From Lentimicrobiaceae bacterium (lineage in GTDB: Bacteria > Bacteroidota > Bacteroidia > Bacteroidales > JAGONC01): DNA of 64,000 nt. Below are positions 2,905-63,083 of the stretch, in pieces; positions within the stretch are counted from its first letter, which is position 1, and each line of letters begins with the position of its first letter. The position numbers and the translations under genes are program-made. The notes beneath the pieces are model-generated. The model saw nothing but the letters and a program-made list of their open reading frames with translations. It did no database searches and was not told the origin of the DNA. The stretch is from the NCBI GenBank assembly GCA_017993235.1, contig JAGONC010000002.1, forward strand, positions 44,683 to 108,682, in the 5' to 3' direction.

Positions 2905-3915
2905 TTAATTATAACCCTTGGACCTAAAAGCTAAGTTAAGTGTTACTACATTGGACTCATAAGTTGTAGTTGAGGATATTCCATGGCGGTTAAGAATGCG
3001 AGGATCATTGTTATCCATTTTGTCAATATAATTAACTGCTAATTGCTTTGTAAACCCTATTTCCATGGCCATATCCTTTAATGGTGAATTATAACTTCCA
3101 TCTGGATAAGCCAGGCTGTCCACTTGTTTATCAATTACCTTTTCTAATAGATCCTTCGATTTCTTCATATCATTGAAGGCATCAACAGCACTTAAATTTG
3201 ATAAGTTATAATGTAGATGACCATGTGAGCCAATTTTAACAATCTTCGAATTCGATAATTCTATGATTTCATCTTTTGACAGCAAAGACCATTGTTCAGA
3301 AGGAATATCCTTGATTTTTTTTCTTAAATCAAACTCATGAACTAGATTGTTCAATATTTGATCGCGTTTTGAGGCATCCTGACTTTTCAGATAATCGACA
3401 AGGCTTAGTCCGGTCATGTCATCGACGAAATTCTGAAATCGCATGTTTTCAATTTGTATAATTGCATTTTTATTATAATATTTCAGACATGCAATGTCAT
3501 CAGCCCATAATATGGGTTCCAGATTATTTTCCAAAACGATGGTTGATATAAAAAAAGTGGCCTGTGCATCATATTTCTCTAATATTGGTAAAGCATTTAT
3601 CAGATTGTTTCTATATCCATCGTCAAATGTGATGTTTATTGATTTGCGTTTAGGCTTTATTCTGTTCCTGTAAAGATTAAAAGCCTCGTCTAAACTGATG
3701 ATATCAAACTCTTTAGTTAAATATTGCAAAATCTTCTCGAACTGATTTAATGGGATATGTCTTGGAGAAAAATTCTTAAAGTCATTTTTCACAACACCAT
3801 GGAACATTATATTAAGCACTGAATGATCTGAGAACTTCCTAAAGATTTTCTCCAAACCTGTATCAGTAATGAGGGGGAAAACCACCTTTCGTGCAAATTT
3901 CTTGTCAAACCTCAT
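2905..3915 (-). CDS. Polysaccharide deacetylase (NodB homology domain)
   Basis: The motifs NITFDDGYRNN (TFDDG metal/catalytic motif), HGHLH and LAYPDGSYN occur in NodB order. Confidence 0.85.
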   Translation of the reverse strand: MRFDKKFARKVVFPLITDTGLEKIFRKFSDHSVLNIMFHGVVKNDFKNFSPRHIPLNQFEKILQYLTKEFDIISLDEAFNLYRNRIKPKRKSINITFDDGYRNNLINALPILEKYDAQATFFISTIVLENNLEPILWADDIACLKYYNKNAIIQIENMRFQNFVDDMTGLSLVDYLKSQDASKRDQILNNLVHEFDLRKKIKDIPSEQWSLLSKDEIIELSNSKIVKIGSHGHLHYNLSNLSAVDAFNDMKKSKDLLEKVIDKQVDSLAYPDGSYNSPLKDMAMEIGFTKQLAVNYIDKMDNNDPRILNRHGISSTTTYESNVVTLNLAFRSKGYN

Positions 3916-3927
3916 TTTAAGAATGTT

Positions 3928-5562
3928 TTAATTGTCCTTGACACAACGAATGGATTTTCCAGTATACCTTTTATTATTTTGGCATCTGACATCCTGGCGG
4001 TCATAAAGTAAATTTCTCTTAATTGCACTAGTCGATGTATTTGTCGAGGATGTCCAGAATGCACTATTGGCACCAATATATTGAAAAGATCCGTCGCTAT
4101 TCATCCGCACACCTGCCGGCACTGCAGTGAATCCGCTTGAATTTGTCGCTCCAAGATTGGGCGTCAACCAGTGAACAGTACCAGTTTCTTTTAAATTTCC
4201 CCCGGCATCATACCCCCTGTAACCGTATATTTCCCAAATGGGATCCCCGACAGGATACTGGCTGTCGACCGTGCCTTCCAGAATCTTCCATTCATTATGT
4301 GAGGGGATGTGCCACCCCTGGGGACAGATGCCTTGTGCGCTTTCCGTGGTCACATACTGCATAGCTTCATCCCATTCATACAATCCGCCGTAAATAACAC
4401 AATAGGCTGTATCGTTGTTGTAACAAAACTTTTCAATGAAGCCGTTATCCGACTGTTGCGATTCCCCTGCCGTGCTCATGACCATGGTTCCGACATTCAG
4501 ATTCTCTTTCATCCAGCACTGCGTGCCGATAAGTACCGTATGGTATGTCCTGCCTTGGTACAGCAAAACAGGAATTCCTGGACAATATGTCGGTGATGGG
4601 GGTTCATCCGGAAAAATAAAATCTCCTACCGAATCGACCCATACAGATTCATTACTGATATAGGTCATAATACCTCCCCTGAAGACGGAGGTCTTGTACT
4701 TCAATTTCCCAGCACTAAAGTCAAAGGCGGTGATTTGGTTCAAGGTATCACTGCTGCCAGTTGCATCTTCGATCTTGAAGGCGGAATCTGATCTGACAAC
4801 TCCACCGACATGCAATAATGTAGATGTATCTACAGCCGAGATACCAATACCAACGGATCCGTTATTGGTCTCAACCAACGAGGTAGCGATTAATGCGTTG
4901 CCATCCCATTTGGGAAGATGATTTAGAATATTAGAACCGACTCGGGGATCTAATTCTGTAGTCAGATAGCCGGCTAAAGCATGATTGCCCCAGCTAGAGG
5001 CGTTGTTCCAGTTAATAATGTCATTAGGTACAATGCTGTAAGCAGCACTCAGTCCGAAGATGGGATCTGTTTCGGTAAACCCGGTCAGATAGCCTGCAAG
5101 AGCATGATCACCCCAGGAATATGCAGTATTCCAATGATTTAAATCAATATCACTGACTGTCGCCACTTCATTGGCATAGAATGCATATGGCACTGTTAAA
5201 AGCTGACTGGTGCCCATATGATAATAATTTGTTCCGCCAGCAGTATCCAACTCAATTTTAACGAAATGGTAAGATCCGCCCCAATCGATACTATCAAATG
5301 TCCCTGAAATTACCGTTCCAGTACCAATGGCCAGATTAACTATGCCATAGTTATTAGTTGTGGTACTATGATTTTCGCAGTAAACCACATTCCCGGTTAT
5401 ATTATCTTCGAGCAAACTAATCCGAATGTTTACGGGTTCGTTTGATAATACCGCGTCAGTATTTCCTCTGATAATAGCTTGGTAATTGATAGCTTCGGGT
5501 ACTTGAGCCAGTAGAAGCGTAACAGCGATAGAAAACACAATGAGTAATATAAATCTTTTCAT
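3928..5562 (-). CDS. Secreted FISUMP-domain protein (Fibrobacter succinogenes major paralogous domain)
   Basis: A signal peptide is present (MKRFILLIVFSIAVTLLLAQ). The C-terminal CWMKENLN..YGGLYEW..CPQGWHIPSHNEWKILE..TNSSGFTAVPAG is the FISUMP signature. The N-terminal half carries two W-x-x-A-x-SWG-(D/N)-HALAGYLT repeats. Confidence 0.85.
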   Translation of the reverse strand: MKRFILLIVFSIAVTLLLAQVPEAINYQAIIRGNTDAVLSNEPVNIRISLLEDNITGNVVYCENHSTTTNNYGIVNLAIGTGTVISGTFDSIDWGGSYHFVKIELDTAGGTNYYHMGTSQLLTVPYAFYANEVATVSDIDLNHWNTAYSWGDHALAGYLTGFTETDPIFGLSAAYSIVPNDIINWNNASSWGNHALAGYLTTELDPRVGSNILNHLPKWDGNALIATSLVETNNGSVGIGISAVDTSTLLHVGGVVRSDSAFKIEDATGSSDTLNQITAFDFSAGKLKYKTSVFRGGIMTYISNESVWVDSVGDFIFPDEPPSPTYCPGIPVLLYQGRTYHTVLIGTQCWMKENLNVGTMVMSTAGESQQSDNGFIEKFCYNNDTAYCVIYGGLYEWDEAMQYVTTESAQGICPQGWHIPSHNEWKILEGTVDSQYPVGDPIWEIYGYRGYDAGGNLKETGTVHWLTPNLGATNSSGFTAVPAGVRMNSDGSFQYIGANSAFWTSSTNTSTSAIKRNLLYDRQDVRCQNNKRYTGKSIRCVKDN

Positions 5563-6917: not shown

Positions 6918-6988
6918 ATTGAAAAACTTGGTTTTGTAATTAATTGATATATAAATTAATACAAACACAATAATTCCTATACATCGGT

Positions 6989-7031
<43 letters not shown>

Positions 7032-12247: not shown

Positions 12248-14015
12248 TACGGTAGGAGGAGGTCAGACCTGTATTACCGTTACCGTTGTACTTAAATCCG
12301 ATATGAGCAGTGCCGGAATAGGCCGACAGGTCGACAACGCCGGAAAAGATCCAGTCATGCTCGGGATCACTCTGTCCGGCCAGTATTGGATTAAGCTCCA
12401 CCCAGGTTGCACCCACGATATTGACTCCATTGAAATCCGTTGAGATCCAGACCGACAGGCCATCGTGGGTCCAGTAAGCCTGGGCACTTTCAAAGGTGAA
12501 TTTGGGACTGGTCATCGCATCCAGGTCGATGGGTGGTGTGATCAGCCAGCACTCATTCTCCTCATTGGAGTTAAAGGATGTTGCCTGTGCATATACATTG
12601 CTGTCAAATTCCTTTGCACGCCAGAGTCTGCTCCCGATCGTGGCCTCATTCAGCCAGCCTGACAGGGAGATATCCACGTCGTTCGACTGTGACTCAAAAT
12701 CTTCATTCATAGAGGTGACACCTCCACCTGCTCCGCTGGAGTTTACTATCACGTCATCGATCCGAAAGCTGGTGGATTCCGTACTGCTTCCCCGGTACCG
12801 GAAACCAATATAGTATATACCCGTATAGGATGACAGGTCAATGTTTCCGGAGGGAATGAATTCATGGTCAGGATCATGCTGATTTGCGATGCGGGCTTCC
12901 AGTTGCGTCCAGGAAGCGGAACCTACATCGGTGCCATTGAAGTCAGAGGAGATCCATACCGTGAGTCCATCGTTTGATGAATGGGCCCAGTAAGCCTTTG
13001 CGCTCGAAAATGTCAGGAATTTTGTTCCCTGGATACGGATGGGAGGTGTGATCAGCCATGCGATCATTTCGGACAATCCGGAATTATACCCGGAAGCCTG
13101 GGCATAGGTATTTCCATCGTATTCCTTGGCCTGCCATTTCCGGTCGCCTACCTCATTAATATTCAGCCATTTCTCAAGAACTATATCCGCGTCAGGTGTC
13201 GTGCTGCTGAAAGTTTCGTTGATTTCATCGACCGGTTCCACATCTCCTCCCCCACCTCCTTCGCATCGTTCACCATCAAGTGCCACTTCGTACAGCGTAC
13301 GTATATATAACTGATAATCAGCACCATACAGACTAATGATGCCTATAATGCTTCCATTTCCCTCCGGTATTTCGGTAGTGGCGAATGTGGCGTAGTTGCT
13401 GGTCCTGACAATCAACGAGTTGCCATCACAATCCTCCAGCATTCGGTTAGCAGAAGCATCCGCATCCGAATAGGTTTTACCCAGTTCCGTTTGCATGAAC
13501 TGCACACTGTCGAGCTCCACCAGGTGCGACTCATACCCCCCGGCCTGGATCTGGCTGATGGTTACCCGTTCCGGTGTGCGGTACCGCTGGTTGGCCAGAA
13601 TGATGATATTAGAATCATTATCTACGTTATCGATCTGATGGAGGCTGTTATAGGTCGAAAGGATGCAGTTTTTAAGGTACACGCGTATGGAATCCCCCAC
13701 GCGGAGTCCGCCAGATTCCAGAAGGTGAAGGTTCATCCCCCCCGTAGCATCCTGTATGAACGCACTCCGATAAATGTTGCCCGTCGTCTCATCCATGGTG
13801 ACCACAGCGTACAATGACTGGTCATCAGTAAAAGTATACGTTCCCTCGTCCTGGTACAGCTGATACAGATCCTCGATCGTTACCTGTTCACCCACAGGGA
13901 TCTGGTTGATGGGAGGTGCATCGAACTCCTGTTTAATGCAACCGGTGTGCATAAGCATTAATCCGGTGACGAGAAAACCGAAAATAACATATAAACGACA
14001 ATTCATCCTTGTCAT
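12219..14015 (-). CDS. Surface lipoprotein with a DUF5689-like N-terminal module and two choice-of-anchor-J-like domains
   Basis: A probable lipobox is present (LMHTGC). The N-terminal ~230 aa match the pattern I recall for DUF5689. Two homologous ~165-aa domains follow (..W-x-N-x-x-x-x-G-x-R-x-W-x-A-K-E-(Y/F)-D-x-N-x-YAQA..WLITPPI..W(I/V)S(S/T)DFNG..(R/Y)RID(D/N)V). Confidence 0.65.
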   Translation of the reverse strand: MTRMNCRLYVIFGFLVTGLMLMHTGCIKQEFDAPPINQIPVGEQVTIEDLYQLYQDEGTYTFTDDQSLYAVVTMDETTGNIYRSAFIQDATGGMNLHLLESGGLRVGDSIRVYLKNCILSTYNSLHQIDNVDNDSNIIILANQRYRTPERVTISQIQAGGYESHLVELDSVQFMQTELGKTYSDADASANRMLEDCDGNSLIVRTSNYATFATTEIPEGNGSIIGIISLYGADYQLYIRTLYEVALDGERCEGGGGGDVEPVDEINETFSSTTPDADIVLEKWLNINEVGDRKWQAKEYDGNTYAQASGYNSGLSEMIAWLITPPIRIQGTKFLTFSSAKAYWAHSSNDGLTVWISSDFNGTDVGSASWTQLEARIANQHDPDHEFIPSGNIDLSSYTGIYYIGFRYRGSSTESTSFRIDDVIVNSSGAGGGVTSMNEDFESQSNDVDISLSGWLNEATIGSRLWRAKEFDSNVYAQATSFNSNEENECWLITPPIDLDAMTSPKFTFESAQAYWTHDGLSVWISTDFNGVNIVGATWVELNPILAGQSDPEHDWIFSGVVDLSAYSGTAHIGFKYNGNGNTGLTSSYRIDNVQLYDE

Positions 14016-38435: not shown

Positions 38436-38557
38436 GGAAAAGGTTTTTGTAAAATTAGAAAGAATGAAGGATGTAGAATGAAATATGAAAAATTTTTAAT
38501 TACCTGTCAGAAAAATCAAATAATAATACATTATTAATAAATGCTCGCACATTCATC

Positions 38558-38606
38558 AAGCTGCAAGCTGCAAGCTTCAAGCTATAAGCTGCAAGCTGCA
38601 ACCTGT
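38558..38606 (+). repeat. Heptamer array (AAGCTGC) x7
   Basis: The array reads AAGCTGC AAGCTGC AAGCTTC AAGCTAT AAGCTGC AAGCTGC AACCTGT and is followed by the hairpin ATCCCGC-TGTC-GCGGGAT (38608-38625). Confidence 0.9.
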
Positions 38607-38684
38607 AATCCCGCTGTCGCGGGATCTCCGCTTCGCTCCGACCTGCAACTATCACAATTGCCTAAAATAATATTATTCTCAACA

Positions 38685-38752: not shown

Positions 38753-39265
38753 ATGTATGCAATCGTTGATATAGCAGGGCAACAGTTCAGGGTTGAACAG
38801 GGTCAGGAAGTCTTTGTTCACCGCCTGCAGGGCGAGGAAGGTTCACAGGTCCGGTTTGAGGAAGTCTTACTGGTGGATGCCGATGGCAAAATCAGGGTGG
38901 GAACACCTGTGGTTGAAGGTGCAGTGGTCTCCGCAAAGATCCTTTCACACCTGAAGGGTGACAAAGTATTGATTTTTAAAAAGAAAAAAAGAAAAGGCTA
39001 CCAGAAACTGACCGGTCACCGCGACTACCTTACGCGTATTCTTATTGAAGATATTTCATTGACCGAAAAGAAAAGAGATAAACCGAAGGAAAAGAAAGAA
39101 CCGGTTGTGGAAGAACAGGCTGCCCCTGCTGCCGAAACGATCATCGAAAGCAGCCCTGTACCCCAGGCGGTAACGGATGAGATGGCACCGGAAGAACCCA
39201 AGGCAAAGAAGCCGCGGAAAAGGCCGGTAAAAAAAGTTGAGGAAGAGGGAACGGAGGAGAAGTAG
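38753..39265 (+). CDS. rplU: Ribosomal protein L21 with a ~65-aa K/E/P-rich C-terminal extension
   Basis: MYAIVDIAGQQFRVEQGQEVFVHRL..KVLIFKKKKRKGYQKLTGHRDYLTRILIEDI is the L21 core. The tail is EKKRDKPKEKKEPVVEEQAAPAAE..PKAKKPRKRPVKKVEEEGTEEK. Confidence 0.9.
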   Translation: MYAIVDIAGQQFRVEQGQEVFVHRLQGEEGSQVRFEEVLLVDADGKIRVGTPVVEGAVVSAKILSHLKGDKVLIFKKKKRKGYQKLTGHRDYLTRILIEDISLTEKKRDKPKEKKEPVVEEQAAPAAETIIESSPVPQAVTDEMAPEEPKAKKPRKRPVKKVEEEGTEEK

Positions 39266-39268
39266 GCG

Positions 39269-39312
39269 GTTGGCAGTTGGCAGTCAGCAGTCAACAGTCA
39301 GCAGTCAGCAGT
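39269..39312 (+). repeat. Heptamer array of the GTCAGCA/GTTGGCA family (x6)
   Basis: The array reads GTTGGCA GTTGGCA GTCAGCA GTCAACA GTCAGCA GTCAGCA GT and begins 3 nt after the rplU stop. Confidence 0.9.
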
Positions 39313-39316
39313 AAAT

Positions 39317-39334
39317 AAGCTTGCAGCTTGAAGC
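39317..39334 (-). repeat. Inverted copy of the AAGCTGC-family words
   Basis: The reverse complement of AAGCTTGCAGCTTGAAGC is GCTTCAAGCTGCAAGCTT, which contains the 14-mer CAAGCTGCAAGCTT found at 38564-38577. Confidence 0.7.
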
Positions 39335-39360
39335 CAATATATTTAGAAACATAATTAACC

Positions 39361-39664: not shown

Positions 39665-39698
39665 ATCTCCTGGTTGATTATCAGGGGATTTTTTTTTA
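39665..39698 (+). terminator. Rho-independent terminator after rpmA
   Basis: The stem ATCTCCTG/CAGGGGAT (one G:T pair) has a 9-nt loop and is followed by T9. Confidence 0.75.
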
Positions 39699-39713
39699 GA
39701 AATGGTTACTTTT

Positions 39714-39730
39714 GTTGCAGGTTGCAGGTT
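39714..39730 (+). repeat. GTTGCAG heptamer repeat (x2.5)
   Basis: The repeat reads GTTGCAG GTTGCAG GTT. It is the reverse complement of the CTGCAAC words at 38596-38602 and 38643-38649. Confidence 0.7.
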
Positions 39731-39749
39731 AAGGGGTACAGATTGTCAA

Positions 39750-39799
39750 ATGACTATGAATGACTATGAATGACTACGAATGACCATAAATGACGCGAG
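39750..39799 (+). repeat. Decamer array (ATGACTATGA) x5, decaying 3'-ward
   Basis: The array reads ATGACTATGA ATGACTATGA ATGACTACGA ATGACCATAA ATGACGCGAG and merges into the cassette at 39784-39831. Confidence 0.85.
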
Positions 39800-39831
39800 G
39801 CCTTCAGGCCGAGCATATCACAACGAATAAC
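39784..39831 (+). repeat. Third copy of the 48-bp ATGACGCGAGG-hairpin-CCGAGCA cassette, in the serS 5' leader
   Basis: CCATAAATGACGCGAGGCCTTCAGGCCGAGCATATCACAACGAATAAC is collinear with 51529-51576. The flanks are conserved, while the inner stem-loop changes from GGCGC-GAA-GCGCC to GGCC-TTCA-GGCC. Confidence 0.8.
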
Positions 39832-39837
39832 AATATC

Positions 39838-41106
39838 ATGTTAGAATTAAGCTTTATCCGTGACCACAGGCAGGAAGTTATCCAGCGCCTGGGAATCAAA
39901 AACTTTAAAGCGATTCATCTGGTGGACGAGATCCAGCAGGTGGATTCCGACCGGCGGAAGATCCAGAAAACCCTCGATGATATTCTGGCAGAATCAAACC
40001 AGGCTGCCCGGGAGATCGGGATCCTGTACAAGAGTGGCCGGGTGGAGGAAGCCAGTGAACTGAAAGAAAAGACTGCCGTGTGGAAGGTACAGTCCAGGGA
40101 ACTGGGCGAAAGGCTGACTGAAACCGAAAACCGGTTGAACGACCTGCTGGTGCAATTGCCCAACCTCCCTCATGCATCCGTACCACGAGGCTATTCAGCC
40201 GAACAGAACGAGAATGTCTATCAGGAGGGTGCTTTGCCTGACCTTGGCCCGGAAGCCATGCCACACTGGGATCTGATCCGCAGATACGACATCATTGACT
40301 TTGAGCTGGGCAATAAGGTGACAGGTGCCGGTTTTCCGTTCTATAAAGGCAAAGGTGCAAAATTACAGCGGGCCCTGATCACTTTCTTCCTGGAGTCGGC
40401 TGTCAAGGCCGGATACCTTGAAATCCAGCCTCCCCTGCTGGTCAATGCAGATTCCGGATATGGCACCGGCCAGCTTCCCGATAAGGATGGCCAGATGTAC
40501 CTCGTGACGGAGGAAAATTATTACCTGATCCCGACGGCTGAAGTGCCCATTACAAACATGTACCGCAACGTTATTCTTCCTGCTGAAAGCCTGCCCGTTA
40601 AAAATGTGGCGTATTCGAACTGTTTTCGCCGCGAGGCAGGTTCGTGGGGCAAAGATGTCAGGGGATTGAACCGTTTGCATCAGTTCGACAAGGTCGAAAT
40701 CGTGCAGATCGTGCATCCGGACAAATCCTACGAAGCGCTTGAGGAGATGCGTACTCATGTTGCAGGCCTTCTCCATGCACTGCAGCTGCCCTTTCGTATC
40801 ATGAAACTCTGTGGAGGGGATTTGAGCTTTACCAGTGCCCTGACCTATGATTTCGAGGTTTATTCTGCTGCACAGGCAAGATGGCTGGAAGTCAGTTCCG
40901 TATCCAACTTTGAATCGTTCCAGTCGAACCGGATGAAATTACGCTTCAAAGACCAGGAGGGAAAAACCAGGCTGGCCCATACACTAAACGGCAGTGCCCT
41001 GGCGTTACCCAGGGTGGTGGCCGCTCTGCTGGAAAATAACCAGGGTGCGAACGGGATGACGATTCCCGAAGTATTGGTACCGTATACCGGGTTTGGAATG
41101 ATTTGA
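39838..41106 (+). CDS. serS: Seryl-tRNA synthetase
   Basis: A start at MLELSFIRDHRQEV matches the SerRS N-terminus. The class II motifs FRREAGS and GSALALPR are present. The 48-nt upstream extension in the ORF track is an artefact of the repeat cassette. Confidence 0.95.
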   Translation: MLELSFIRDHRQEVIQRLGIKNFKAIHLVDEIQQVDSDRRKIQKTLDDILAESNQAAREIGILYKSGRVEEASELKEKTAVWKVQSRELGERLTETENRLNDLLVQLPNLPHASVPRGYSAEQNENVYQEGALPDLGPEAMPHWDLIRRYDIIDFELGNKVTGAGFPFYKGKGAKLQRALITFFLESAVKAGYLEIQPPLLVNADSGYGTGQLPDKDGQMYLVTEENYYLIPTAEVPITNMYRNVILPAESLPVKNVAYSNCFRREAGSWGKDVRGLNRLHQFDKVEIVQIVHPDKSYEALEEMRTHVAGLLHALQLPFRIMKLCGGDLSFTSALTYDFEVYSAAQARWLEVSSVSNFESFQSNRMKLRFKDQEGKTRLAHTLNGSALALPRVVAALLENNQGANGMTIPEVLVPYTGFGMI

Positions 41107-41146
41107 GAGAGGAGAGAGGAGAAAGGAGAGAGGAGAAAGGAGAAAT
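41105..41146 (+). repeat. Purine heptamer array (GAGAGAG/GAGAAAG) x6
   Basis: The array reads GAGAGAG GAGAGAG GAGAAAG GAGAGAG GAGAAAG GAGAAAT and begins inside the serS TGA stop codon. Confidence 0.9.
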
Positions 41147-41157
41147 ATTATTACAGA

Positions 41158-43056
41158 ATGTTGATGTATTGGAAGATTTATAGGGAAATTGTACTATTTG
41201 TTATGGGGATGCTGTTACCGGCAATGATGATTTTTGCGCAGCAGCCGGAAACAAACCGGATCATCAGCAGAAGACCGGCATCCACCCGCCCCAGCAATGC
41301 CAGCAATGAAAGCCAGCTGGCTGCAGAATATTATTCACAACAACAATATGATAAAGCTGTTGTGCTCTATGAAAAACTCTACAATGAAAATCCAAGTTAT
41401 GTCAACTACAGCTATTATTATTTCAGCCTGATCCAGCTAGGCAGGTATAATGATGCTATAAAGCTGGTCAGGAAGCAAATCAGGGCTTATCCCGAAAAAT
41501 CACGTTATCTGGTCGACCTGGGCTATATCTACCAGATGTCGGACGAACCTGCCAGGGCTCAGAAGGAATACGAGGAAGCCCTTTCACGACTGCCTGCCGA
41601 TCGCAATGCTATCGTTGAACTTGCAGGAGCTTTTCAATCACGCCGGGAAATAGAATATGCTATCCGAACCTATAAAAGAGGCAAAGAATTACTGGGATAT
41701 TCTGAGCCCTTTTATCTGGAAATAGGCCAGATCTATGAAATGGAAGGTAAATATGAAGAAATGTTCAATGAATACCTTAATTTGATCGAGGTGGATCCTT
41801 CCAGGATCAACATCGTACAGAACCGGATCCAGAACAACCTGGCATCCGATCCGGACGGAACAAAAAGTGAATTGTTCAGGATGGTCCTTCTGAAGAGAGC
41901 ACAGGAATTCCCAGATAAGATCTATTATTCTGAAATGCTGATCTGGTATTCCATCCAGCAAAAGGATTTTAAAACGGCATTAATCCAGGCGAAGGCGCTC
42001 GACAGAAGATTCAATGAGGATGGTGCCCGGGTGTTTGAGATCGGCCAGTTATGTACATCCAATGAAGATTATGACGCTGCCGTGGATGCCTTCAGCTATA
42101 TTGTCAAAAAAGGCGAATCCTCAGGGCTGTACCTTTCAGCCCGCATTGAGCTGCTGAATGCCTCTTTTTTGAAGAGTACAAGCGTTTATCAACCCGAACA
42201 GCAGGTACTGCTGGACATGGATCAACATTTCGATCAATTGCTGAACGAGCTGGGTTACAATGGCACGACCTTATCCCTGATGCGAAACAGGGCACATTTG
42301 CAGGCTTTTTACCTGAACAGGCAACAGGATGCCATCGCATTGCTGGAAATCGCCCGACAGATAAAGACCCTGAAACCACAGCAACGCGCCGGGATAAAAA
42401 TGGAACTGGCGGACATTCTCTTATTTTCCGGTCAGCCCTGGGAAGCCACCTTATTATACTCGCAGGTGGAAAAAGAATTCAAGTACGAACCCATCGGGCA
42501 CGAGGCCAAATTCCGGAATGCCAGGCTATCCTTTTATATCAGTGAATTCCAGTGGGCAAAGGCCCAGCTCGATGTTTTAAAGGCTGCCACCTCCAAACTC
42601 ATCGCCAATGATGCCATGGAATTATCCCTGCTGATCCTCGACAATATGGATGAAGACAGCACCTACACCGTGCTGGGCAGGTATGCCAGGGCTGATTTCC
42701 TGGTTTTTCAGAACAAAGATGATCAGGCTCTCACGATACTTGACTCCCTGGAGCAGTCCTGCCCGGGTCATCCTATCGGGGATGACATTCTCTACAAAAA
42801 GGCTCAGATAAAACTCAGGGAGGGAAAATTTCACGAAGCCGACACCATTCTCCAGGAGTTGATCAGCCGTTATCCCTGGGACATCCTGGCCGATAACGCA
42901 CTGATGATGAGAGCCTCCCTGATGGAAGATCCGTTTAACGATCCGGCCAGGGCCATGGATCTCTACCAGCAGCTTATGGTGGATTATCCCGGAAGCCTTT
43001 TCGTGGTGGAAGCCCGTAAGCGGTTCAGGGAACTCAGGGGCGATGTGGTGAATTAG
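41158..43056 (+). CDS. Exported tetratricopeptide-repeat protein
   Basis: A signal peptide is followed by multiple 34-aa TPR-like units (A-x-x-x-Y-x-x-A-L-x-x-x-P pattern) throughout the protein. Confidence 0.8.
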   Translation: MLMYWKIYREIVLFVMGMLLPAMMIFAQQPETNRIISRRPASTRPSNASNESQLAAEYYSQQQYDKAVVLYEKLYNENPSYVNYSYYYFSLIQLGRYNDAIKLVRKQIRAYPEKSRYLVDLGYIYQMSDEPARAQKEYEEALSRLPADRNAIVELAGAFQSRREIEYAIRTYKRGKELLGYSEPFYLEIGQIYEMEGKYEEMFNEYLNLIEVDPSRINIVQNRIQNNLASDPDGTKSELFRMVLLKRAQEFPDKIYYSEMLIWYSIQQKDFKTALIQAKALDRRFNEDGARVFEIGQLCTSNEDYDAAVDAFSYIVKKGESSGLYLSARIELLNASFLKSTSVYQPEQQVLLDMDQHFDQLLNELGYNGTTLSLMRNRAHLQAFYLNRQQDAIALLEIARQIKTLKPQQRAGIKMELADILLFSGQPWEATLLYSQVEKEFKYEPIGHEAKFRNARLSFYISEFQWAKAQLDVLKAATSKLIANDAMELSLLILDNMDEDSTYTVLGRYARADFLVFQNKDDQALTILDSLEQSCPGHPIGDDILYKKAQIKLREGKFHEADTILQELISRYPWDILADNALMMRASLMEDPFNDPARAMDLYQQLMVDYPGSLFVVEARKRFRELRGDVVN

Positions 43057-43097
43057 TCGGCAGTTGGCAGTCAGCAGTCAGCAGTTGGCAATAGACA
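43056..43097 (+). repeat. Heptamer array of the GTCAGCA/GTTGGCA family (x6)
   Basis: The array reads GTCGGCA GTTGGCA GTCAGCA GTCAGCA GTTGGCA ATAGACA and begins on the last base of the TAG stop. ATTGACA ATTGACA follows at 43140-43153. Confidence 0.9.
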
Positions 43098-43140
43098 GGT
43101 AAGTACCAGCAGATTAAAATTTAATATCAAAAGTTGGCCA

Positions 43141-43935
43141 TTGACAATTGACAATTTCAGGGAATCGGTCAGGCCGAAGAAAAGGTGGGGTCAGCACTTT
43201 CTGGCTGATGAGAACATCGCCCGTAAGATCGTTGGCAGCCTTTCATCCCACCATCTGCAGGTGCTGGAAGTGGGACCCGGCCGGGGTGTTTTGACAAAAT
43301 ACCTCCTGCCATTGTTTCCTTCCCTGAAGGTGATCGAAATTGATCCGGAATCCGTCGGTTACCTGAACGAATTTCTCCCGGGTTTGGGTAACAGCATCAT
43401 TCAGGATGATTTTCTCAAAAAAGACCTGAAGGAGATCTTTGACGGACACTTCGCCATCGTGGGGAACTTTCCCTACAATATTTCATCCCAGATCCTGTTT
43501 CATCTCATCGCTCACCGTGACCAGGTGACCGAAGTGGTTGGCATGTTCCAGAAAGAGGTGGCGGAGAGGATCGTTTCGCCTCCCGGCAGCAAAAAGTATG
43601 GAATTCTCAGCGTTTTGACCGGGGCTTATTATGACATTGATTATCTCTTCACAGTGAGTGAAAACGTTTTTTTTCCTGCACCCAGGGTAAAATCATCCGT
43701 GATACGGCTGACCAGGAACCAGACGCATCATCTGGATTGCAATGAGGAATTTTTCTTTACCGTAGTCAAGACATCATTCAATCAACGCAGAAAAACCCTC
43801 CGGAATGCCTTGAAGATCCTATCCAAACATGCGATCCTGAGCGATCCTTTGTTTTCCCTTCGGGCAGAACAGCTTAGCATTCAGGATTTTATACGACTGA
43901 CAATCCTTTTGGAAGATTCTTTGGCCAATGGTTAA
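43141..43935 (+). CDS. rsmA: 16S rRNA (adenine1518/1519-N6)-dimethyltransferase
   Basis: KKRWGQHFL, the SAM motif VLEVGPGRGVLT and GNFPYNISSQILF are present. The start codon is uncertain: it is the TTG at 43141, and there is no nearby ATG. Confidence 0.9.
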   Translation: MTIDNFRESVRPKKRWGQHFLADENIARKIVGSLSSHHLQVLEVGPGRGVLTKYLLPLFPSLKVIEIDPESVGYLNEFLPGLGNSIIQDDFLKKDLKEIFDGHFAIVGNFPYNISSQILFHLIAHRDQVTEVVGMFQKEVAERIVSPPGSKKYGILSVLTGAYYDIDYLFTVSENVFFPAPRVKSSVIRLTRNQTHHLDCNEEFFFTVVKTSFNQRRKTLRNALKILSKHAILSDPLFSLRAEQLSIQDFIRLTILLEDSLANG

Positions 43936-46044: not shown

Positions 46045-47751
46045 ATGAAAGCGGGGTATGATGACAGAAGAACGGTTCCGGACCTGTTGATCAAGGTAGT
46101 GGAGGTCTATCCGCATAAAGGGATTGGATTTGTTCAGGCAGATGGACGGATAAAATTCATGACGTATCAGGAGCTCTTATCCCGGGCTTCAGCATTATTA
46201 GGAAACCTGCAGGCCAGCGGTCTGGCCCCCGGTGATAAGGTGATGATCGTAATGATCAGGAATGTAGAAATCGTTTCTGTGCTCTGGGCTTGTTTTTTGG
46301 GTGGATTTATTCCCACGATACTTCAGCCCCCCTTGTCGTTCACGGAATTCAATCAACCTGCACAAAAAATTGACAATGTATTCCGGACTTTGCAAAATCC
46401 AAAGATAATCCTCTCGGCAGATCTGTATGGCAGTTTTCAGTCGGATGTCATCCCCGCGGCAAGCCTGATCAATGCAGAAGAATTAAAGAATCAAACGGAG
46501 GAATTTGTTTGGACCAAACCAAAGGAATCAGATATTGCTTTCATTCAGTTTTCCTCGGGAAGTACAGGGGATCCAAAAGGGATCATCCTGACGCATAAGA
46601 ACATCCTGACCAATATCGCTGCGATTGGTGCCGGCCTTGACTTCCATAATACTGATGTGTTCACCAACTGGATGCCGCTGTACCATGATATGGGGCTGTT
46701 TGGGTACCACATTTGTCCTATTTTTTCATTGAGTAATCAGTATCTCATTGATCCTGTAGATTTTGTAAAAAAACCAAGCCTATGGCTGGATGTCATGGAT
46801 GAAGTACGATGTACCATTACCGGATGCCCAAATTTCGGTCAGGCGCTGCTTTTAAGGTACTTAAAAAACAGGGAAGTCAATCCATGGGATCTTTCTTCTA
46901 TAAAAGGAATAGTAAATGGTGCAGAACCCATTTCCCCCAGAATAATGAATGGGTTCCTGGATAGTTTATCCGGGTACGGATTAAGAAAAGAATCTATGAT
47001 GCCGGCCTATGGAATGGCTGAAGCGACTCTGGCCATCACTTTCTCTGAATTATTGAAGGCACCTGTCATAACAACATTCAACCGAACCCTACTTCAGAAG
47101 GAGGGTAAAGCTGTTCTGGAAAAAGAGGATACGCATGACATGATCGAACTGGTGAGTGTCGGAAAACCGCTCAATGATATTGAGATGAGAATCGTCAGCG
47201 AAAGAGGGCATCCACTGGGAGAGGGTTTTGAAGGGCATATCCAGATACGGGGTTCGGGAATTACTTCAGGATACTATAATAATCCTGCAGAAACCAGGAA
47301 TTCGTTCAGCAATACCTTTTTAAAAACCGGAGATAAAGGTTTTATTTTCGATGATAATCTTTATATCACAGGAAGGATCAAAGATATCATTTTTGTCCGT
47401 GGGAAGAATTTATATGCCCATGATCTTGAAAATCTGGCCATTAAACATTCCGACATTCCTTATGGCAAAGTGATCATTGCAGGTTTATTTGATCCCAAAA
47501 AAGGGCAGGACCAGATCCTGCTGTTCCTGGTAGGTTCACCCAACAAGTCAACCTGCAATACATTCCTCAGTCTTCACCAGTTTTTCAGGGACACGTATGG
47601 AGTGACCATCAATATTTTTATTCCGATACGTTCCAACCAGGTGCCCAAGACCAGCAGCGGTAAAATTCAGCGTCATAAGCTGGTTGCCAGTTATCAGAAC
47701 GGGGAGTTTGACGGAGCGATCGCGGAGATGGCGAAGCTGATGAAGGGATAA
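46045..47751 (+). CDS. Fatty acyl-AMP ligase (FAAL-type adenylating enzyme)
   Basis: The motifs are FIQFSSGSTGDPKGIILTHKNILTN, WMPLYHDMGLFGY (FAAL-typical), YGMAEATLA, TGDKGF..LYITGRIKDIIFVRGKN and TSSGKIQRHKL. Confidence 0.85.
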   Translation: MKAGYDDRRTVPDLLIKVVEVYPHKGIGFVQADGRIKFMTYQELLSRASALLGNLQASGLAPGDKVMIVMIRNVEIVSVLWACFLGGFIPTILQPPLSFTEFNQPAQKIDNVFRTLQNPKIILSADLYGSFQSDVIPAASLINAEELKNQTEEFVWTKPKESDIAFIQFSSGSTGDPKGIILTHKNILTNIAAIGAGLDFHNTDVFTNWMPLYHDMGLFGYHICPIFSLSNQYLIDPVDFVKKPSLWLDVMDEVRCTITGCPNFGQALLLRYLKNREVNPWDLSSIKGIVNGAEPISPRIMNGFLDSLSGYGLRKESMMPAYGMAEATLAITFSELLKAPVITTFNRTLLQKEGKAVLEKEDTHDMIELVSVGKPLNDIEMRIVSERGHPLGEGFEGHIQIRGSGITSGYYNNPAETRNSFSNTFLKTGDKGFIFDDNLYITGRIKDIIFVRGKNLYAHDLENLAIKHSDIPYGKVIIAGLFDPKKGQDQILLFLVGSPNKSTCNTFLSLHQFFRDTYGVTINIFIPIRSNQVPKTSSGKIQRHKLVASYQNGEFDGAIAEMAKLMKG

Positions 47752-47853
47752 TACCCACCCCCTCAATCCCCCTCCCTTCGGGAAGGGAGGGGGAAGCTCA
47801 CTTTCCCCTTCTCCCCCTCCCTGCAAGCAGGGAGGGGGCCGGGGGGTGGGTAT
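47751..47853 (+). other. GC-rich nested-hairpin element (outer stem enclosing two near-identical hairpins)
   Basis: The outer stem pairs ATACCCACCCCC (47751-47762) with GGGGGTGGGTAT (47842-47853). Hairpin 1 spans 47767-47794 (12-bp stem, TCCCCCTCCCTT / AAGGGAGGGGGA). Hairpin 2 spans 47813-47838 (11-bp stem, CCCCCTCCCTG / CAGGGAGGGGG). Confidence 0.8.
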
Positions 47854-47921
47854 AAGAAACGATTCTAGCTGGGAGAAGACCGGGGAGTGGGTAAAATTTC
47901 TATTTTATTGCAAAAATATCC

Positions 47922-48183: not shown

Positions 48184-48312
48184 AAATCCAAAATTCCAAA
48201 ATCCAAATTCCAGACAAATTCCAACCATCAAATTCCAAGCCTCCTCCGAAATGAGCTTTGGGATTTGGGTATTGTAATTTATTTGGAATTTGGATCTTGG
48301 GATTTAGGATTT
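48184..48312. repeat. ~130-bp imperfect palindrome built from AATTCCA/AAATCCA words; likely bidirectional terminator
   Basis: The left arm AAATCCAAAATTCCAAAATCCAAATTCCAGACAAATTCCAACC.. (48184-48240) faces the right arm ..TTTGGAATTTGGATCTTGGGATTTAGGATTT (48256-48312). It fills the gap between two convergent genes exactly. Confidence 0.8.
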
Positions 48313-50426: not shown

Positions 50427-51515
50427 ATGTCCCTCTTCACCATCCCCAACATCCGCATCGCTGGCATGGCAGCAGCTGTTCCGGCAAAAGAGGTTTCCAA
50501 CCTTGATTACCGTTGGATCTCCGTCAAAGAGCGAAATCAGGTCATCAGGACGATTGGAGTGGAAAAACGCCGGATCGCCGAAAAAGGTCAAACAACGGGC
50601 GATCTGTGTTTTGCGGCTGCCGACAGGCTTCTGAATGATCTGCAATGGAACCGGAACGATATCCAGGTAATCGTTTTTGTTTCCCAGTCAATGGATTATA
50701 TTATCCCTGCCACCGCCCCCATTTTGCAGGATCGCCTATCCTTACCCAAAACGTGCATGGCATTCGATATTAACCTGGGATGTTCGGGATTTGTATACGG
50801 ACTGTCGGTCATCGGCAGCCTGATGAGCCAGGCCGGTTTCCAGAAAGCACTATTGCTGGCGGGAGATCTTTCCAATGTTACTTCCTCCTACCGGGATAAA
50901 AGCACGTATCCCCTGTTCGGGGATGCCGGTACGGCCACTGCACTGGAATTTGACCGGAACGCGGTTCCCATGACGTTTAACCTCCAGACCGATGGTTCAG
51001 GCTATCAAGCTATTATGATTCAGGATGGGGGAGTGCGTAACTGGGTAAGCAAAAAATCATTCAACTACCATAAATACGGGAAAGGCATATACAGGAATAA
51101 CCTTCAGATCGCGTTGAATGGGATCGAAGTGTTCAACTTTTCCCTTAGGGAAGTAGTCCCTAATATCAAAGCCACACTCGAATACGCAGGGAAAACACTG
51201 AATGATTTTGATTACCTGGTCTTCCACCAGGCTAACCGGCTGATCAATGAGACGATACGAAAAATGCTGAAAGCAGATAAAGAGAAGGTTCCCTATTCCA
51301 TCCATAAGTATGGAAATACCAGCAGCGCATCCGTACCCCTGACCATCGTTTCCGAATTACAGGATAAGATCCGGAAAGAACATGTCCGTTTCCTGCTATC
51401 AGCATTCGGAATCGGATTATCCTGGGGCACGGTGTTGCTGGAGACGGATGGGGTGGTGTGCCCGGGGGTACTGCAAGTCAGCAGTCAGCAGTCAACAGTC
51501 AGCAGTCAACAGTAA
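50427..51515 (+). CDS. 3-oxoacyl-ACP synthase III (FabH-like thiolase fold)
   Basis: The Cys-His-Asn triad contexts are NLGCSGFVYGL, VFHQANRLINE and KYGNTSSASVPL. I call the start at MSLFTIPN. The last 13 codons (QVSSQQSTVSSQQ) are encoded by the GTCAGCA heptamer array. Confidence 0.85.
   Translation: MSLFTIPNIRIAGMAAAVPAKEVSNLDYRWISVKERNQVIRTIGVEKRRIAEKGQTTGDLCFAAADRLLNDLQWNRNDIQVIVFVSQSMDYIIPATAPILQDRLSLPKTCMAFDINLGCSGFVYGLSVIGSLMSQAGFQKALLLAGDLSNVTSSYRDKSTYPLFGDAGTATALEFDRNAVPMTFNLQTDGSGYQAIMIQDGGVRNWVSKKSFNYHKYGKGIYRNNLQIALNGIEVFNFSLREVVPNIKATLEYAGKTLNDFDYLVFHQANRLINETIRKMLKADKEKVPYSIHKYGNTSSASVPLTIVSELQDKIRKEHVRFLLSAFGIGLSWGTVLLETDGVVCPGVLQVSSQQSTVSSQQ
51477..51511 (+). repeat. Heptamer array of the GTCAGCA/GTCAACA family (x5) inside the 3' end of the KAS III ORF
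   Basis: The array reads GTCAGCA GTCAGCA GTCAACA GTCAGCA GTCAACA and is followed by GTAATGA containing the stop. Confidence 0.9.
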
Positions 51516-51528
51516 TGACAACTAATAA

Positions 51529-51624
51529 CCATGAATGACGCGAGGCGCGAAGCGCCGAGCAAATAACCACGAATCACCATGAATGACGCGAGGCGCGAAG
51601 CGCCGAGCAAATAACCACGAATTA
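51529..51624 (+). repeat. Tandem duplication of a 48-bp cassette (47/48 identical)
   Basis: CCATGAATGACGCGAGGCGCGAAGCGCCGAGCAAATAACCACGAAT(C/T)A occurs twice. Each copy holds the hairpin GCGA-GGCGC-GAA-GCGCC-GAGC (51540-51560 and 51588-51608). Confidence 0.95.
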
Positions 51625-51630
51625 CCCCAC

Positions 51631-52365
51631 ATGAACGCTTTCGACCTCACCGGAAAACGAATCCTTGTCACAGGCGCATCCTCAGGCCTTGGACGGCAAT
51701 GTGCCATCACGGCCAGCCAGTACGGGGCAACCGTCATCATTACCGGCCGTAACCAGGGAAGACTGCTGGAGACCTTTGGCCGACTTTCCGGTACAGATCA
51801 CCAGTGGTTGCTGGCAGATCTCACGAATGAAACAGAGATTGCTCAACTAACCGATCATGTTCAACCGGTCAATGGGGTTGTCTACAGCGTCGGGATATCC
51901 GATCTGTCACCCGCACGGTTCATTACCGCAGCAGATATTACTAAAACCTTCAATGTTAGTTATAATGCTTCCGTACTGCTGACCAGTAACCTTCTGAAAC
52001 AGAAAAAACTTGTGCAAAAAGCCTGTTCTCTCGTTTTTATCTCCACGATATCCACAAGATACCCCTTTGTGGGTGGTGCCATGTACATCAGCGCAAAGGC
52101 AGCATTGGAGGCCTATGCCCGCGTTCTGGCTCTTGAACTGGCAGCAAAGGGGATCAGGTCCAACAGCATCTGCCCGGCGTTTGTCAAAACACCCATGCTG
52201 GAAAGTACAGCTGAAAATTATTCCCAGGAGGCCGTAAAAAAAATTGAAGAAAGACAACCCCTGGGACTGGGCGAACCCGAAGATGTGGCCAATGCGGTGG
52301 TTTTTTTCCTCTCAGATGCTTCACGCTGGATCACAGCAACCAACCTCATCCTCGGAGGCGGATGA
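51631..52365 (+). CDS. Short-chain dehydrogenase/reductase (3-oxoacyl-ACP reductase-like)
   Basis: ILVTGASSGLGR (TGxxxGxG) and YISAKAALE (YxxxK) are present. I call the start at MNAFDLTGKRILV, because the upstream 48 nt of the track ORF lie in the repeat cassette. Confidence 0.9.
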   Translation: MNAFDLTGKRILVTGASSGLGRQCAITASQYGATVIITGRNQGRLLETFGRLSGTDHQWLLADLTNETEIAQLTDHVQPVNGVVYSVGISDLSPARFITAADITKTFNVSYNASVLLTSNLLKQKKLVQKACSLVFISTISTRYPFVGGAMYISAKAALEAYARVLALELAAKGIRSNSICPAFVKTPMLESTAENYSQEAVKKIEERQPLGLGEPEDVANAVVFFLSDASRWITATNLILGGG

Positions 52366-52389: not shown

Positions 52390-52448
52390 GATATTTGATT
52401 TTTGATTTATTTTTGATTTTTGGTTTTTGGTTTTTGATATTTGATATT
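52390..52448 (+). repeat. T-rich heptamer-phased tract of the GATTTTT/TTGGTTT/GATATTT family
   Basis: G residues fall at 52397, 52404, 52415, 52422, 52429, 52436 and 52443, giving spacings of 7, 11, 7, 7, 7 and 7. The tract lies between the SDR stop and the GT2 start. Confidence 0.8.
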
Positions 52449-61239: not shown

Positions 61240-61295
61240 TTCTCCTCTCTCATCTCTCATCTCTCATCTCTCATCTCTCATCTCTCCTCTCCACA
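61240..61295 (+). repeat. Pyrimidine heptamer array (CTCTCAT x5 plus degenerate flanks)
   Basis: Five perfect CTCTCAT units span 61247-61281. The array's complement resembles the purine array at 41105-41146. Confidence 0.9.
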
Positions 61296-63055: not shown

Positions 63056-63083
63056 GATTTTTGCTTTTTGATTTTTGATCCTA
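63056..63083 (+). repeat. T-rich heptamer tract (GATTTTT GCTTTTT GATTTTT GATCCTA)
   Basis: The tract begins 1 nt after the TAG stop of the PKD gene and belongs to the same word family as 52390-52448. Confidence 0.8.

Follow-up and report, generated by a model that had tools for sequence, protein, structure and literature searches.

A very small, structure-conserving hairpin repeat dispersed ahead of start codons in Lentimicrobiaceae-like Bacteroidales

In a stretch of 64,000 nucleotides from a Lentimicrobiaceae bacterium (contig JAGONC010000002.1, positions 44,683 to 108,682; the whole stretch is called the window here, and positions are counted from its first letter), a short hairpin with a tandem G.A/A.G mismatch stands just ahead of two genes, serS and a short-chain dehydrogenase (SDR) gene, and its stem differs in sequence between the two places. 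The locus raises the question of whether this element is a leader that belongs to these genes or a repeat that has reached them from elsewhere, and whether its fold matters in RNA or in DNA. The motif GACGCGAGG-N8/9-CCGAGC has three copies in the window, all on the + strand (39792-39814, 51537-51560 and 51585-51608), and GACGCGAGG-N{8,9}-CCGAGC finds no match in 100 dinucleotide shuffles of the window, which sets the chance expectation at zero. The serS copy has the core GCGAGG-CC-TTCA-GG-CCGAGC (39795-39814, +; match to covariance model R1 at 39783-39826, 51.1 bits). The first SDR-gene copy has the core GCGAGG-CGC-GAA-GCG-CCGAGC (51540-51560, +; R1, 72.8 bits) and the second has the same sequence (51588-51608, +; motif and R1). 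The sequence-only reading of this DNA had described a cassette of 48 bp, in tandem at 51529-51624 and single at 39784-39831, with decamers ahead of the single one. The three motif sites agree with that description, as does Tandem Repeats Finder (TRF), which reports a 48-bp unit repeated 2.1 times at 51524-51626 with 96% matches and, ahead of the serS copy, a 10-bp unit AATGACTATG repeated 4.6 times at 39749-39794 (+). The 48 bp are nevertheless not the unit. Both window loci are tandem A-rich decamer arrays (AATGACTATG, AATAACCACG and similar) in which a hairpin of 20-21 nt is inserted directly after AATGAC, with which the serS array ends, and a tandem period of 38 nt is found elsewhere. The element is better taken as a hairpin of 20-24 nt placed after AATGAC in a decamer array, the 48-bp cassette being one such hairpin plus about 27 nt of array sequence.

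The hairpin is dispersed, as had been proposed. Public data yield 33-34 copies at 12 distinct loci (given L numbers where they must be told apart) across several related genomes of a Lentimicrobiaceae-like clade of uncultured Bacteroidales, with the consensus AATGAC-GCGAGGC-(variable inner stem of 2-3 bp)-(triloop)-GCCGAGC-AAATRAC. The core measures 20-24 nt and lies in every copy within AATRACNNNN decamer arrays; the 5' flank is AATGAC or a one-base variant in all copies but one, the 3' flank is AAATRAC or ATATRAC, and the triloops (R-N-A) are mostly GAA, then AAA, GCA, ACA and ATA, with one GCAA and one TTCA. A scan of species-representative genomes (one genome per species) with AATGACGCGAGG-N6-11-CCGAGCA matched 23 loci. 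All but one of these fell by chance in GC-rich genomes, a number close to expectation, and the sole real one, L022, is a metagenome-assembled genome of Bacteroidales with two hairpin copies ahead of hsp20. A scan of metagenomes returned 120 stretches, mostly by chance, among which the real ones were told by AT-rich decamer flanks and a palindromic inner stem; further copies came from fetching the neighbourhoods of homologous proteins. The metagenome Ga0209096 holds at least nine copies on 0.9 Mb of contigs. The scan of viral contigs yielded no copy. In the window the sole Rfam match at the gathering score is a tRNA, and no relevant match appears at either hairpin locus at E<=10. All copies found are intergenic except one, in L064, which is read through by the frame of a PF05635 pseudogene.

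The fold is supported by covariation. In alignment A3, which is gap-free and holds 18 distinct copies (an earlier version had 13 sequences), 126 of 126 pair cells are standard pairs, double-sided changes occur in five of the seven pairs, the observed covariation score is reached by none of 500 shuffles, and sliding the partners destroys the pairing. The outer-stem variants GCGAGG/CCGAGC and GCGAAG/CTGAGC co-occur perfectly and are never mixed, and the tandem G.A/A.G positions are invariant. Two observations first made on the window, that the stem changes in a structure-preserving way and that both versions keep the tandem mismatch, are thereby extended to the 18 copies. Even a degenerate copy in L064, GTGAGGTGC-GAA-GCACCGAAT, keeps the fold via U-A and G.U replacements. 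With RNA parameters, GCGA-GG..CC-GAGC with the tandem G.A/A.G is the minimum free energy structure of isolated copies (-7.9 to -14.5 kcal/mol, z scores -2.6 to -4.7) and takes more than 90% of the ensemble for most of them; with DNA parameters, which lack special loop bonuses, the hairpins rise barely above shuffles (z -0.9 to -2.6). The hairpin is not an intrinsic terminator, because no U tract follows it, AAATAAC or ATATCAC standing there instead. Nor is it a kink-turn, which would have a 3-nt bulge beside the tandem mismatch, between the C and NC helices: in all copies the G.A/A.G makes a symmetric 2x2 internal loop and a bulge is absent. When the 140 nt at 39721-39860 are folded, only a short weak hairpin appears around the serS ATG, and the stretch shows no excess of structure over shuffles (z +0.71). 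In-silico removal or scrambling of the hairpin brings no significant change to the start region (-20..+10), whose unpaired probability is 0.65 in the native sequence, 0.68 after deletion and 0.64 after scrambling.

The place of the hairpin with respect to genes is also constrained. At each of the 12 loci it has the sense orientation relative to the downstream gene (binomial p=0.0005), and the last hairpin lies 18-66 nt before the ATG, with an A/C-rich, decamer-like spacer between. The preferred orientation to start codons that had been suspected thus holds throughout. The distance to the ATG that had been called fixed is 23 nt at serS (ATG 39838; spacer ATATCACAACGAATAACAATATC, 39815-39837, +) and 22 nt at the SDR gene (ATG 51631; spacer AAATAACCACGAATTACCCCAC, 51609-51630, +); it stands for these two window loci but not for the family. 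The genes downstream are functionally unrelated: serS, SDR, hsp20, a GFO/IDH/MocA oxidoreductase, thiolase, 3-hydroxyacyl-CoA dehydrogenase, RNase R, 6-pyruvoyl-tetrahydropterin synthase (PTPS) and, in L139, an open reading frame (ORF) of 372 aa that is a putative pdxA from its sequence alone. The upstream gene is usually co-directional and ends right where the repeats begin. The SDR-gene hairpins sit in an intercistronic spacer of 115 nt after a KAS III ORF (stop codon 51513-51515): the decamers AATGACAACT AATAACCATG AATGAC (51514-51539, +) precede hairpin 1, and AAATAACCACG AATCACCATG AATGAC (51561-51587, +) separate the two hairpins and complete the tandem period of 48 nt. In the hsp20 leaders of L022 (515-534) and L063 (759-778) a canonical AGGAGG stands 8-9 nt ahead of the ATG, an uncommon feature in the Shine-Dalgarno-poor Bacteroidota.

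Transcription of the hairpin can be approached in the spacer between rpmA and serS. The intrinsic terminator of rpmA, a hairpin with a T run (39665-39698, +), recurs as the same hairpin in L145-L151 and marks the upstream boundary of the serS transcription unit. It is followed by a predicted Bacteroidota -7 promoter box TACTTTTG (39707-39714, +) and by 2.4 copies of a GTTGCAG heptamer at the start of the serS leader (39714-39730, +; TRF). The terminator and a TAC[TC]TTTG box are conserved in four lineages, with the box at the same place in L147/L148, L149 and L150/L151, and the consensus reported for the phylum is TAHHTTTG with G at -5 (PMC6847099). A sigma-70 promoter scan was not used, Bacteroidota promoters being different. 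The serS cassette should be transcribed, because the conserved -7 box lies upstream of it; judged by this motif, it would lie in a 5' untranslated region (UTR) of about 119 nt starting at about 39719, which favours the 5'-UTR placement first proposed. Start sites of the Shine-Dalgarno-less Bacteroidota need unstructured A/C-rich ribosome-loading tracts (PMC6847099).

The cassette also misleads gene calling. The ATG within AATGACGCGAGG opens ORFs at 39790-41106 (438 aa) and 51583-52365 (260 aa), both beginning MTRG, while nearly all close homologues listed have 422-423 aa for serS and 244 aa for the SDR protein, with 100% of the query aligned from the downstream ATG. The MTRG extensions are spurious, as the earlier reading had held, because close homologues begin at the downstream ATG, and the public call P0002 (serS), at 438 aa, has already been misled. 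A coding role for the extension was rejected on this ground and also by frame, since the 48 nt of the two window loci keep the frame and the 49-71 nt of other loci do not. The serS protein of the window is 100% identical to an entry named Lentimicrobiaceae/Bacteroidales bacterium.

Comparison with relatives shows how quickly the element comes and goes. The serS leader of the most distant relative measures about 20 nt. In the same spacer L145 has no insert, L147/L148 have inverted CAAGCTG heptamer arrays, L149 has a different inverted-repeat insert, and the window combines heptamers and decamers with the GA hairpin. Over 123 kb of syntenic DNA of the serS region from four related lineages the covariance model detects no hairpin copy, and these four lineages carry the family elsewhere. 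Relatives whose SDR protein is 91% and 89% identical have only heptamer arrays in the KAS III-SDR spacer, and in general those with serS or SDR proteins 86-91% identical hold other repeats or nothing in the same spacers. Because the orthologous spacers of close relatives lack them, both window copies are recent, lineage-specific acquisitions. Copy number also varies, with two versus five copies at the hsp20 locus and 1, 3, at least 1, 3 and 4 copies, all intact, in five lineages at a spacer between a PF05635 gene and a thiolase gene, where the PF05635 protein has diverged to 64% identity. A site AATGAC^AAATGAC is occupied by a different hairpin in another lineage (L152 47-114 versus L064). L139 has an inverted copy beside direct ones, and all the other loci have singlets or direct tandem copies. 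Of the idea that the cassette is a miniature mobile promoter or UTR module, the mobile or expandable part is supported by presence or absence at orthologous spacers and by one to five copies per locus; the promoter part finds no support, as nothing in the analysis points to a promoter within the cassette.

At seven loci the direct decamer array is preceded by an inverted one, (TCATTCATAG)n. When whole spacers are folded, the two pair as a long AU-rich stem whose end falls exactly at AAUGAC, where it abuts the GA hairpin, and the tail towards the AUG remains open (z -2.5, -3.6 and -7.4). At one locus, between the genes of 3-hydroxyacyl-CoA dehydrogenase and thiolase and not in 23S rRNA, the loop between the arrays holds a gene of the PF05635 family (23S rRNA intervening-sequence protein, a four-helix bundle; Pfam E=9e-27). 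This gene is intact in L155 (269-646), L157 (1537-1899), L159 (2481-2861) and L152 (1584-1973), and the copy in L064 (2099-2492, - strand) has an in-frame stop; L156 carries a PF05635 gene (3001-3390) at a different locus, with inverted decamers but no hairpin. Of six loci, three have complementary arrays on the two sides of the PF05635 ORF (z -2.5 to -2.9), and three do not. The genes at the hairpin locus count as one observation, because they are orthologues of one insertion. PF05635 stands in cis at 1 of the 12 cassette loci; tblastn found none in the window and, among the loci then collected, only that of L064. Many PF05635 homologues end in decamer-encoded tails (..NMNDYQ, ..NNSHNNHE, ..MTNDNE).

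The observations define a dispersed repeat, conserved in structure and restricted in orientation, with tandem duplication and with turnover between lineages. Judged from this turnover, the family behaves like a small mobile hairpin repeat and not like a gene-specific regulator. We hold, with somewhat more confidence than doubt, that it is a previously undescribed family of very small non-coding dispersed hairpin repeats of a Lentimicrobiaceae-like clade, transcribed and kept for its structure. The covariation, together with the intact copies at a locus kept across lineages, suggests that selection acts on the RNA hairpin. Copies multiply locally by tandem duplication with periods of 38 or 48 nt, and they may arrive at new spacers in single lineages through recombination or gene conversion between decamer arrays, or through some mobilising enzyme. 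The hairpin would be transcribed with the downstream gene and form a compact and self-contained stem-loop in the mRNA; the A/C-rich tract of 18-45 nt ahead of the AUG would stay single-stranded for ribosome loading. Its most likely effect on the host would be that of a 5' structural cap or a processing boundary for the downstream cistron. Where an inverted array lies upstream, the long AU-rich decamer stem would be a plausible RNase III site, and cleavage there would leave the hairpin near the new 5' end.

Several points weigh against this account. The antisense strand folds nearly equally (mean difference 1.3 kcal/mol), so energy alone is no proof of a sense-strand RNA structure; because antisense RNA folds nearly as well, the case for RNA rests on orientation and not on energy. 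The start of serS transcription is placed by motif only, and L139 has a perfect TACTTTTG -7-like box downstream of its hairpins, at 13175-13200 (- strand), where it lies with a short ORF (MNTFTTFA*) between the hairpins and the pdxA-like ORF; this is the sole locus where the promoter may lie downstream of the cassette. An insulator role, in which the hairpin would keep the start region open, had to be dropped as the main mechanism, deletion and scrambling being without effect. Both window copies are recent and dispensable in relatives, which fits a passenger as well as a functional module. They also have no inverted array upstream, and for this reason the RNase III model cannot apply to them as such. 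Finally, the single matching species-representative genome has one locus only, so that the copy number per genome may be low in some members.

One alternative is that the hairpin is selfish or neutral DNA, a palindrome kept at the DNA level by a mobilising enzyme or by hairpin-templated repair or gene conversion, its structure in the transcript being irrelevant to the host. By analogy with REP sequences, which are recognised by RAYT/IS200-type HUH transposases, an enzyme would recognise the hairpin in single-stranded DNA. The presence or absence of the element at orthologous spacers and its changes in copy number would follow, as would the different hairpin at the same AATGAC^AAATGAC site, which is what an insertion hot spot would give. 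Copies of the same locus are often identical (four in L159, three in L157, four in L063, two in the window), suggesting homogenisation; the inverted doublet of L139 is REPIN-like, no change in start-site accessibility is predicted, and GNA triloops with tandem G.A pairs are very stable also in single-stranded DNA, as in the d(GCGAAGC) mini-hairpins. Yet 12 of 12 sense insertions, confined to the last tens of nucleotides before the AUG, are not expected if insertion is blind to transcription. Template-switch repair would turn G.A/A.G into Watson-Crick pairs, but these positions are invariant in A3, and G.U (G.T) wobble variants exist (L063 635 and the degenerate copy in L064). The copies at the PF05635-thiolase locus have stayed intact in all five lineages despite the divergence of the protein, the poor distinction from shuffles with DNA parameters also speaks against it, though weakly given the absent loop bonuses, and no transposase gene was noticed in the fetched loci, where no systematic search was made. 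We regard this alternative as possible but doubtful. Far more remote is a gene-specific cis-regulator of serS or the SDR gene, be it a riboswitch, an attenuator, a thermometer or a T-box-like leader, in favour of which stand the leader position near the start codon and the one locus where the downstream gene is hsp20, a classic target of thermometers. Against it, the hairpin is missing from the orthologous leaders of serS and SDR in close relatives, the downstream genes are functionally unrelated, the start region is not part of the hairpin, no U tract follows it and Rfam has no match even at E<=10. The comparative data effectively refute such a regulator, which we consider scarcely credible.

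The hairpin might instead be the binding site, in RNA or DNA, of a trans-acting protein, with the Avd-like PF05635 protein as candidate, and so belong to a post-transcriptional network or serve as a recognition site for an element like an intervening sequence (IVS). The hairpins directly follow the PF05635 gene, and inverted decamers precede it, at one orthologous locus in five lineages; the second PF05635 gene, in L156, also has inverted decamers, though no hairpin. The invariant G.A/A.G with a purine-rich triloop resembles a recognition surface and not merely a stable stem. Avd is pentameric, and the regular spacing of 38/48 nt would suit a multimeric binder. S23p proteins are also pentameric (PMC4990558). 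Against this, PF05635 occurs in cis at a single cassette locus and nowhere in the window, and its genes there amount to one observation. Moreover, we know of no binding data for any member of the PF05635 family outside diversity-generating retroelements (DGRs). We think a protein site quite improbable. A broader proposal, that the decamer arrays and the GA hairpin are the ends of an IVS-like selfish element living in mRNA spacers and not in rRNA, seems unlikely, if a little less so. Its full form would be inverted decamers, PF05635 gene, then direct decamers with GA hairpins, and the ORF-less forms, including both window loci, would be miniature derivatives. RNase III would cut the long decamer stem in operon transcripts or excise it from them, and the GA hairpin would serve as the protective 5' end of the downstream cistron or as a binding site of the PF05635 pentamer. 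The model for this is the rRNA IVS, where RNase III cuts the stem-loop that carries an S23p ORF (Warrier et al. 2016, PMC4990558).

On the favoured account, the family is a clean example, backed by covariation, of a very small dispersed hairpin repeat from Bacteroidota, a phylum whose leaders have no Shine-Dalgarno sites and rely on unstructured A-rich tracts. It offers a tractable system for studying the spread of elements of some 20 nt for which no transposase is obvious, and with it one could test if PF05635 genes are markers of IVS-like elements in mRNAs. If the IVS-like proposal were true, it would provide the first concrete RNA partner for the large orphan PF05635/Avd-like family outside DGRs, and an intervening-sequence life-style in bacterial mRNAs. 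A practical consequence is that the cassette ATG gives false N-terminal extensions of 16 codons in gene calls, one of them already public. More generally, the spacers of this clade are built from fast-evolving arrays of 7 and 10 nt in which several mini-hairpin families are embedded.

Heptamer arrays (CAAGCTG, GCAGTCA, GAGAGGA, AGTCGGC, TTGACAA, AAATCCA, GATTTTT, TCTCATC) occupy many spacers of the window, often from the stop codon onwards, at 38557-38605, 39261-39312, 39714-39730, 41105-41145, 43055-43090, 43140-43156, 48184-48238, 51476-51513, 52390-52445, 61241-61291 and 63056-63079. In the syntenic spacers of relatives they differ in length or unit, and they resemble the short tandemly repeated repetitive (STRR) sequences of cyanobacteria, but in Bacteroidales. 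The array at 51476-51513 (AGTCAGC/AGTCAAC, +; TRF and ORF list) encodes the C-terminal tail of the KAS III-like ORF, which runs through it (51476-51515) and ends ..VLQVSSQQSTVSSQQ*; because the Pfam domain ends at residue 397 of 420, expansion of the array changes the C-terminus. At 48184-48306, inverted heptamers (AAATCCA)n ... (TGGATTT)n lie between two convergent genes; the long hairpin that they form might serve as a terminator in both directions or as a 3' stabiliser. The CAAGCTG array of the rplU leader (38557-38605) has a reverse complement, AAGCTTGCAGCTTGAAG, just downstream of rplU (39318-39335), with which it could pair across the whole rplU message. After that same array, upstream of rplU, lies a mini-hairpin ATCCCGC-TGTC-GCGGGAT (38608-38625), and the same spacer of L145 (8480-8900) holds about 15 tandem hairpins of 24 nt, YCCYGC-TTKY-GCRGGR-TGACG, with covarying stems, a second hairpin-in-array family. 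A third mini-hairpin family lies in GGCAGTY heptamer arrays, CCTG-TCCCGAGGA...CGAGGGA-TCAGCAG, again with the CGAG/CGAG tandem G.A context (L145 13274-13310; L149 13235-13270; L147 13222-13260; L085, - strand, 348; L089 5230-5255). A hammerhead-like CUGAUGAG..GAAA in this third family (L147 13222) leaves no room for stem I and was judged a coincidence.

Hairpins of a different type occur in the window at 47750-47860, downstream of an AMP-binding gene, where GC-rich CCCCCTCCC-TTCGGGAA-GGGAGGGGG and CCCCCTCCCTGC-AA-GCAGGGAGGGGG are nested in an outer ACCCACCCCC/GGGGGGTGGGT pairing. Two unrelated GC-rich genomes, L025 and L031, share a hairpin GCGAGGCG-TGAAA-CGCCGAGC. In L025 it is the tip of a longer palindromic repeat in opposite orientations (725-745, +; 4775-4795, -), and in L031 (1367-1389, - strand) it follows NNNTGAC heptamers behind a stop codon; the CGAG/CGAG tandem-G.A hairpin may thus be found again among the repeats of other phyla. 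The 3' 46 nt of tRNA-Met(CAT) (968-1040) are repeated 6 kb downstream (6986-7031) with 98% identity, bracketing a segment of low GC content (33-41% versus about 48%) with genes for GNAT, polysaccharide deacetylase and Fib_succ_major proteins. The segment has the appearance of an old integrated island, and no integrase turned up.

Among known systems, those close in build include the repeats SDR1-8 of heterocystous cyanobacteria (a name that does not refer to the dehydrogenase), which Elhai et al. reportedly described in 2008 as intergenic units of about 21-27 nt, some of them hairpin-forming, inside short tandem repeat arrays. They are said to be present or absent at orthologous sites and to be regarded as very small mobile elements. 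The Bacteroidales hairpin resembles them in its unit of 20-24 nt within tandem arrays and in its insertion polymorphism at the orthologous serS and SDR-gene spacers. As far as the literature citing Elhai et al. 2008 relates, SDR5 inserts precisely in HIP1 (PMC4390886, PMC3116915), and the insertion of the hairpin after a defined AATGAC is similar. In a comparison by description only, it differs from SDR1-8 in the Bacteroidota host, the decamer in place of heptamer arrays, the strict sense and start-proximal place and the invariant tandem G.A. REP/REPIN sequences, mobilised by RAYT transposases (Bertels & Rainey 2011, PMC3116915), share with it the short, imperfect extragenic palindrome, repeated and dispersed with the hairpin as unit, and the inverted doublet of L139 adds to the likeness. 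Unlike them, the hairpin occurs mostly as singlets or direct tandems, in decamer arrays, always sense and in apparently far lower copy number, and no RAYT was identified by the Pfam calls, which covered selected ORFs only.

The pneumococcal BOX elements are modular intergenic repeats with a variable number of tandem sub-units. The Correia/NEMIS elements of Neisseria are processed by RNase III (PMC2649163). The hairpin family is likewise modular and intergenic with tandem sub-units; BOX and Correia elements are co-transcribed, form stable RNA folds, and can be RNase III substrates and alter the expression of neighbours. They differ in measuring 100-300 nt with terminal inverted repeats and target duplications, the hairpin core having 20-24 nt, neither feature identifiable and no sign of promoter creation. 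The 23S rRNA IVS (PMC4990558) has a possible counterpart at one locus, with a PF05635 ORF between inverted decamer arrays, such arrays being complementary in three of the six cases, but here the setting is an mRNA spacer between metabolic genes, the stems are tandem decamers, GA hairpins follow the 3' arm and most copies are ORF-less. Heptamers of the TAACTGA type, found in Beggiatoaceae, Cyanobacteria and some Bacteroidetes, lie forward, 1-43 nt from the start codon (MacGregor 2015, PMC4679880), with no shared downstream function, with whole-unit insertions and deletions between strains and with absence from the same spacer in close relatives (PMC4679880). The family likewise has short direct repeats in forward orientation, at all 12 loci within tens of nucleotides of the start codon, and the genes concerned are unrelated. 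It differs in its 10-nt unit AATRACNNNN, the heptamers of the window also having sequences other than TAACTGA, and in the embedded covarying hairpin, which PMC4679880 does not describe. The kind of element is already known from REP/REPIN, the cyanobacterial SDRs, BOX, Correia and the start-proximal heptamer repeats, and the Bacteroidales hairpin family itself is new.

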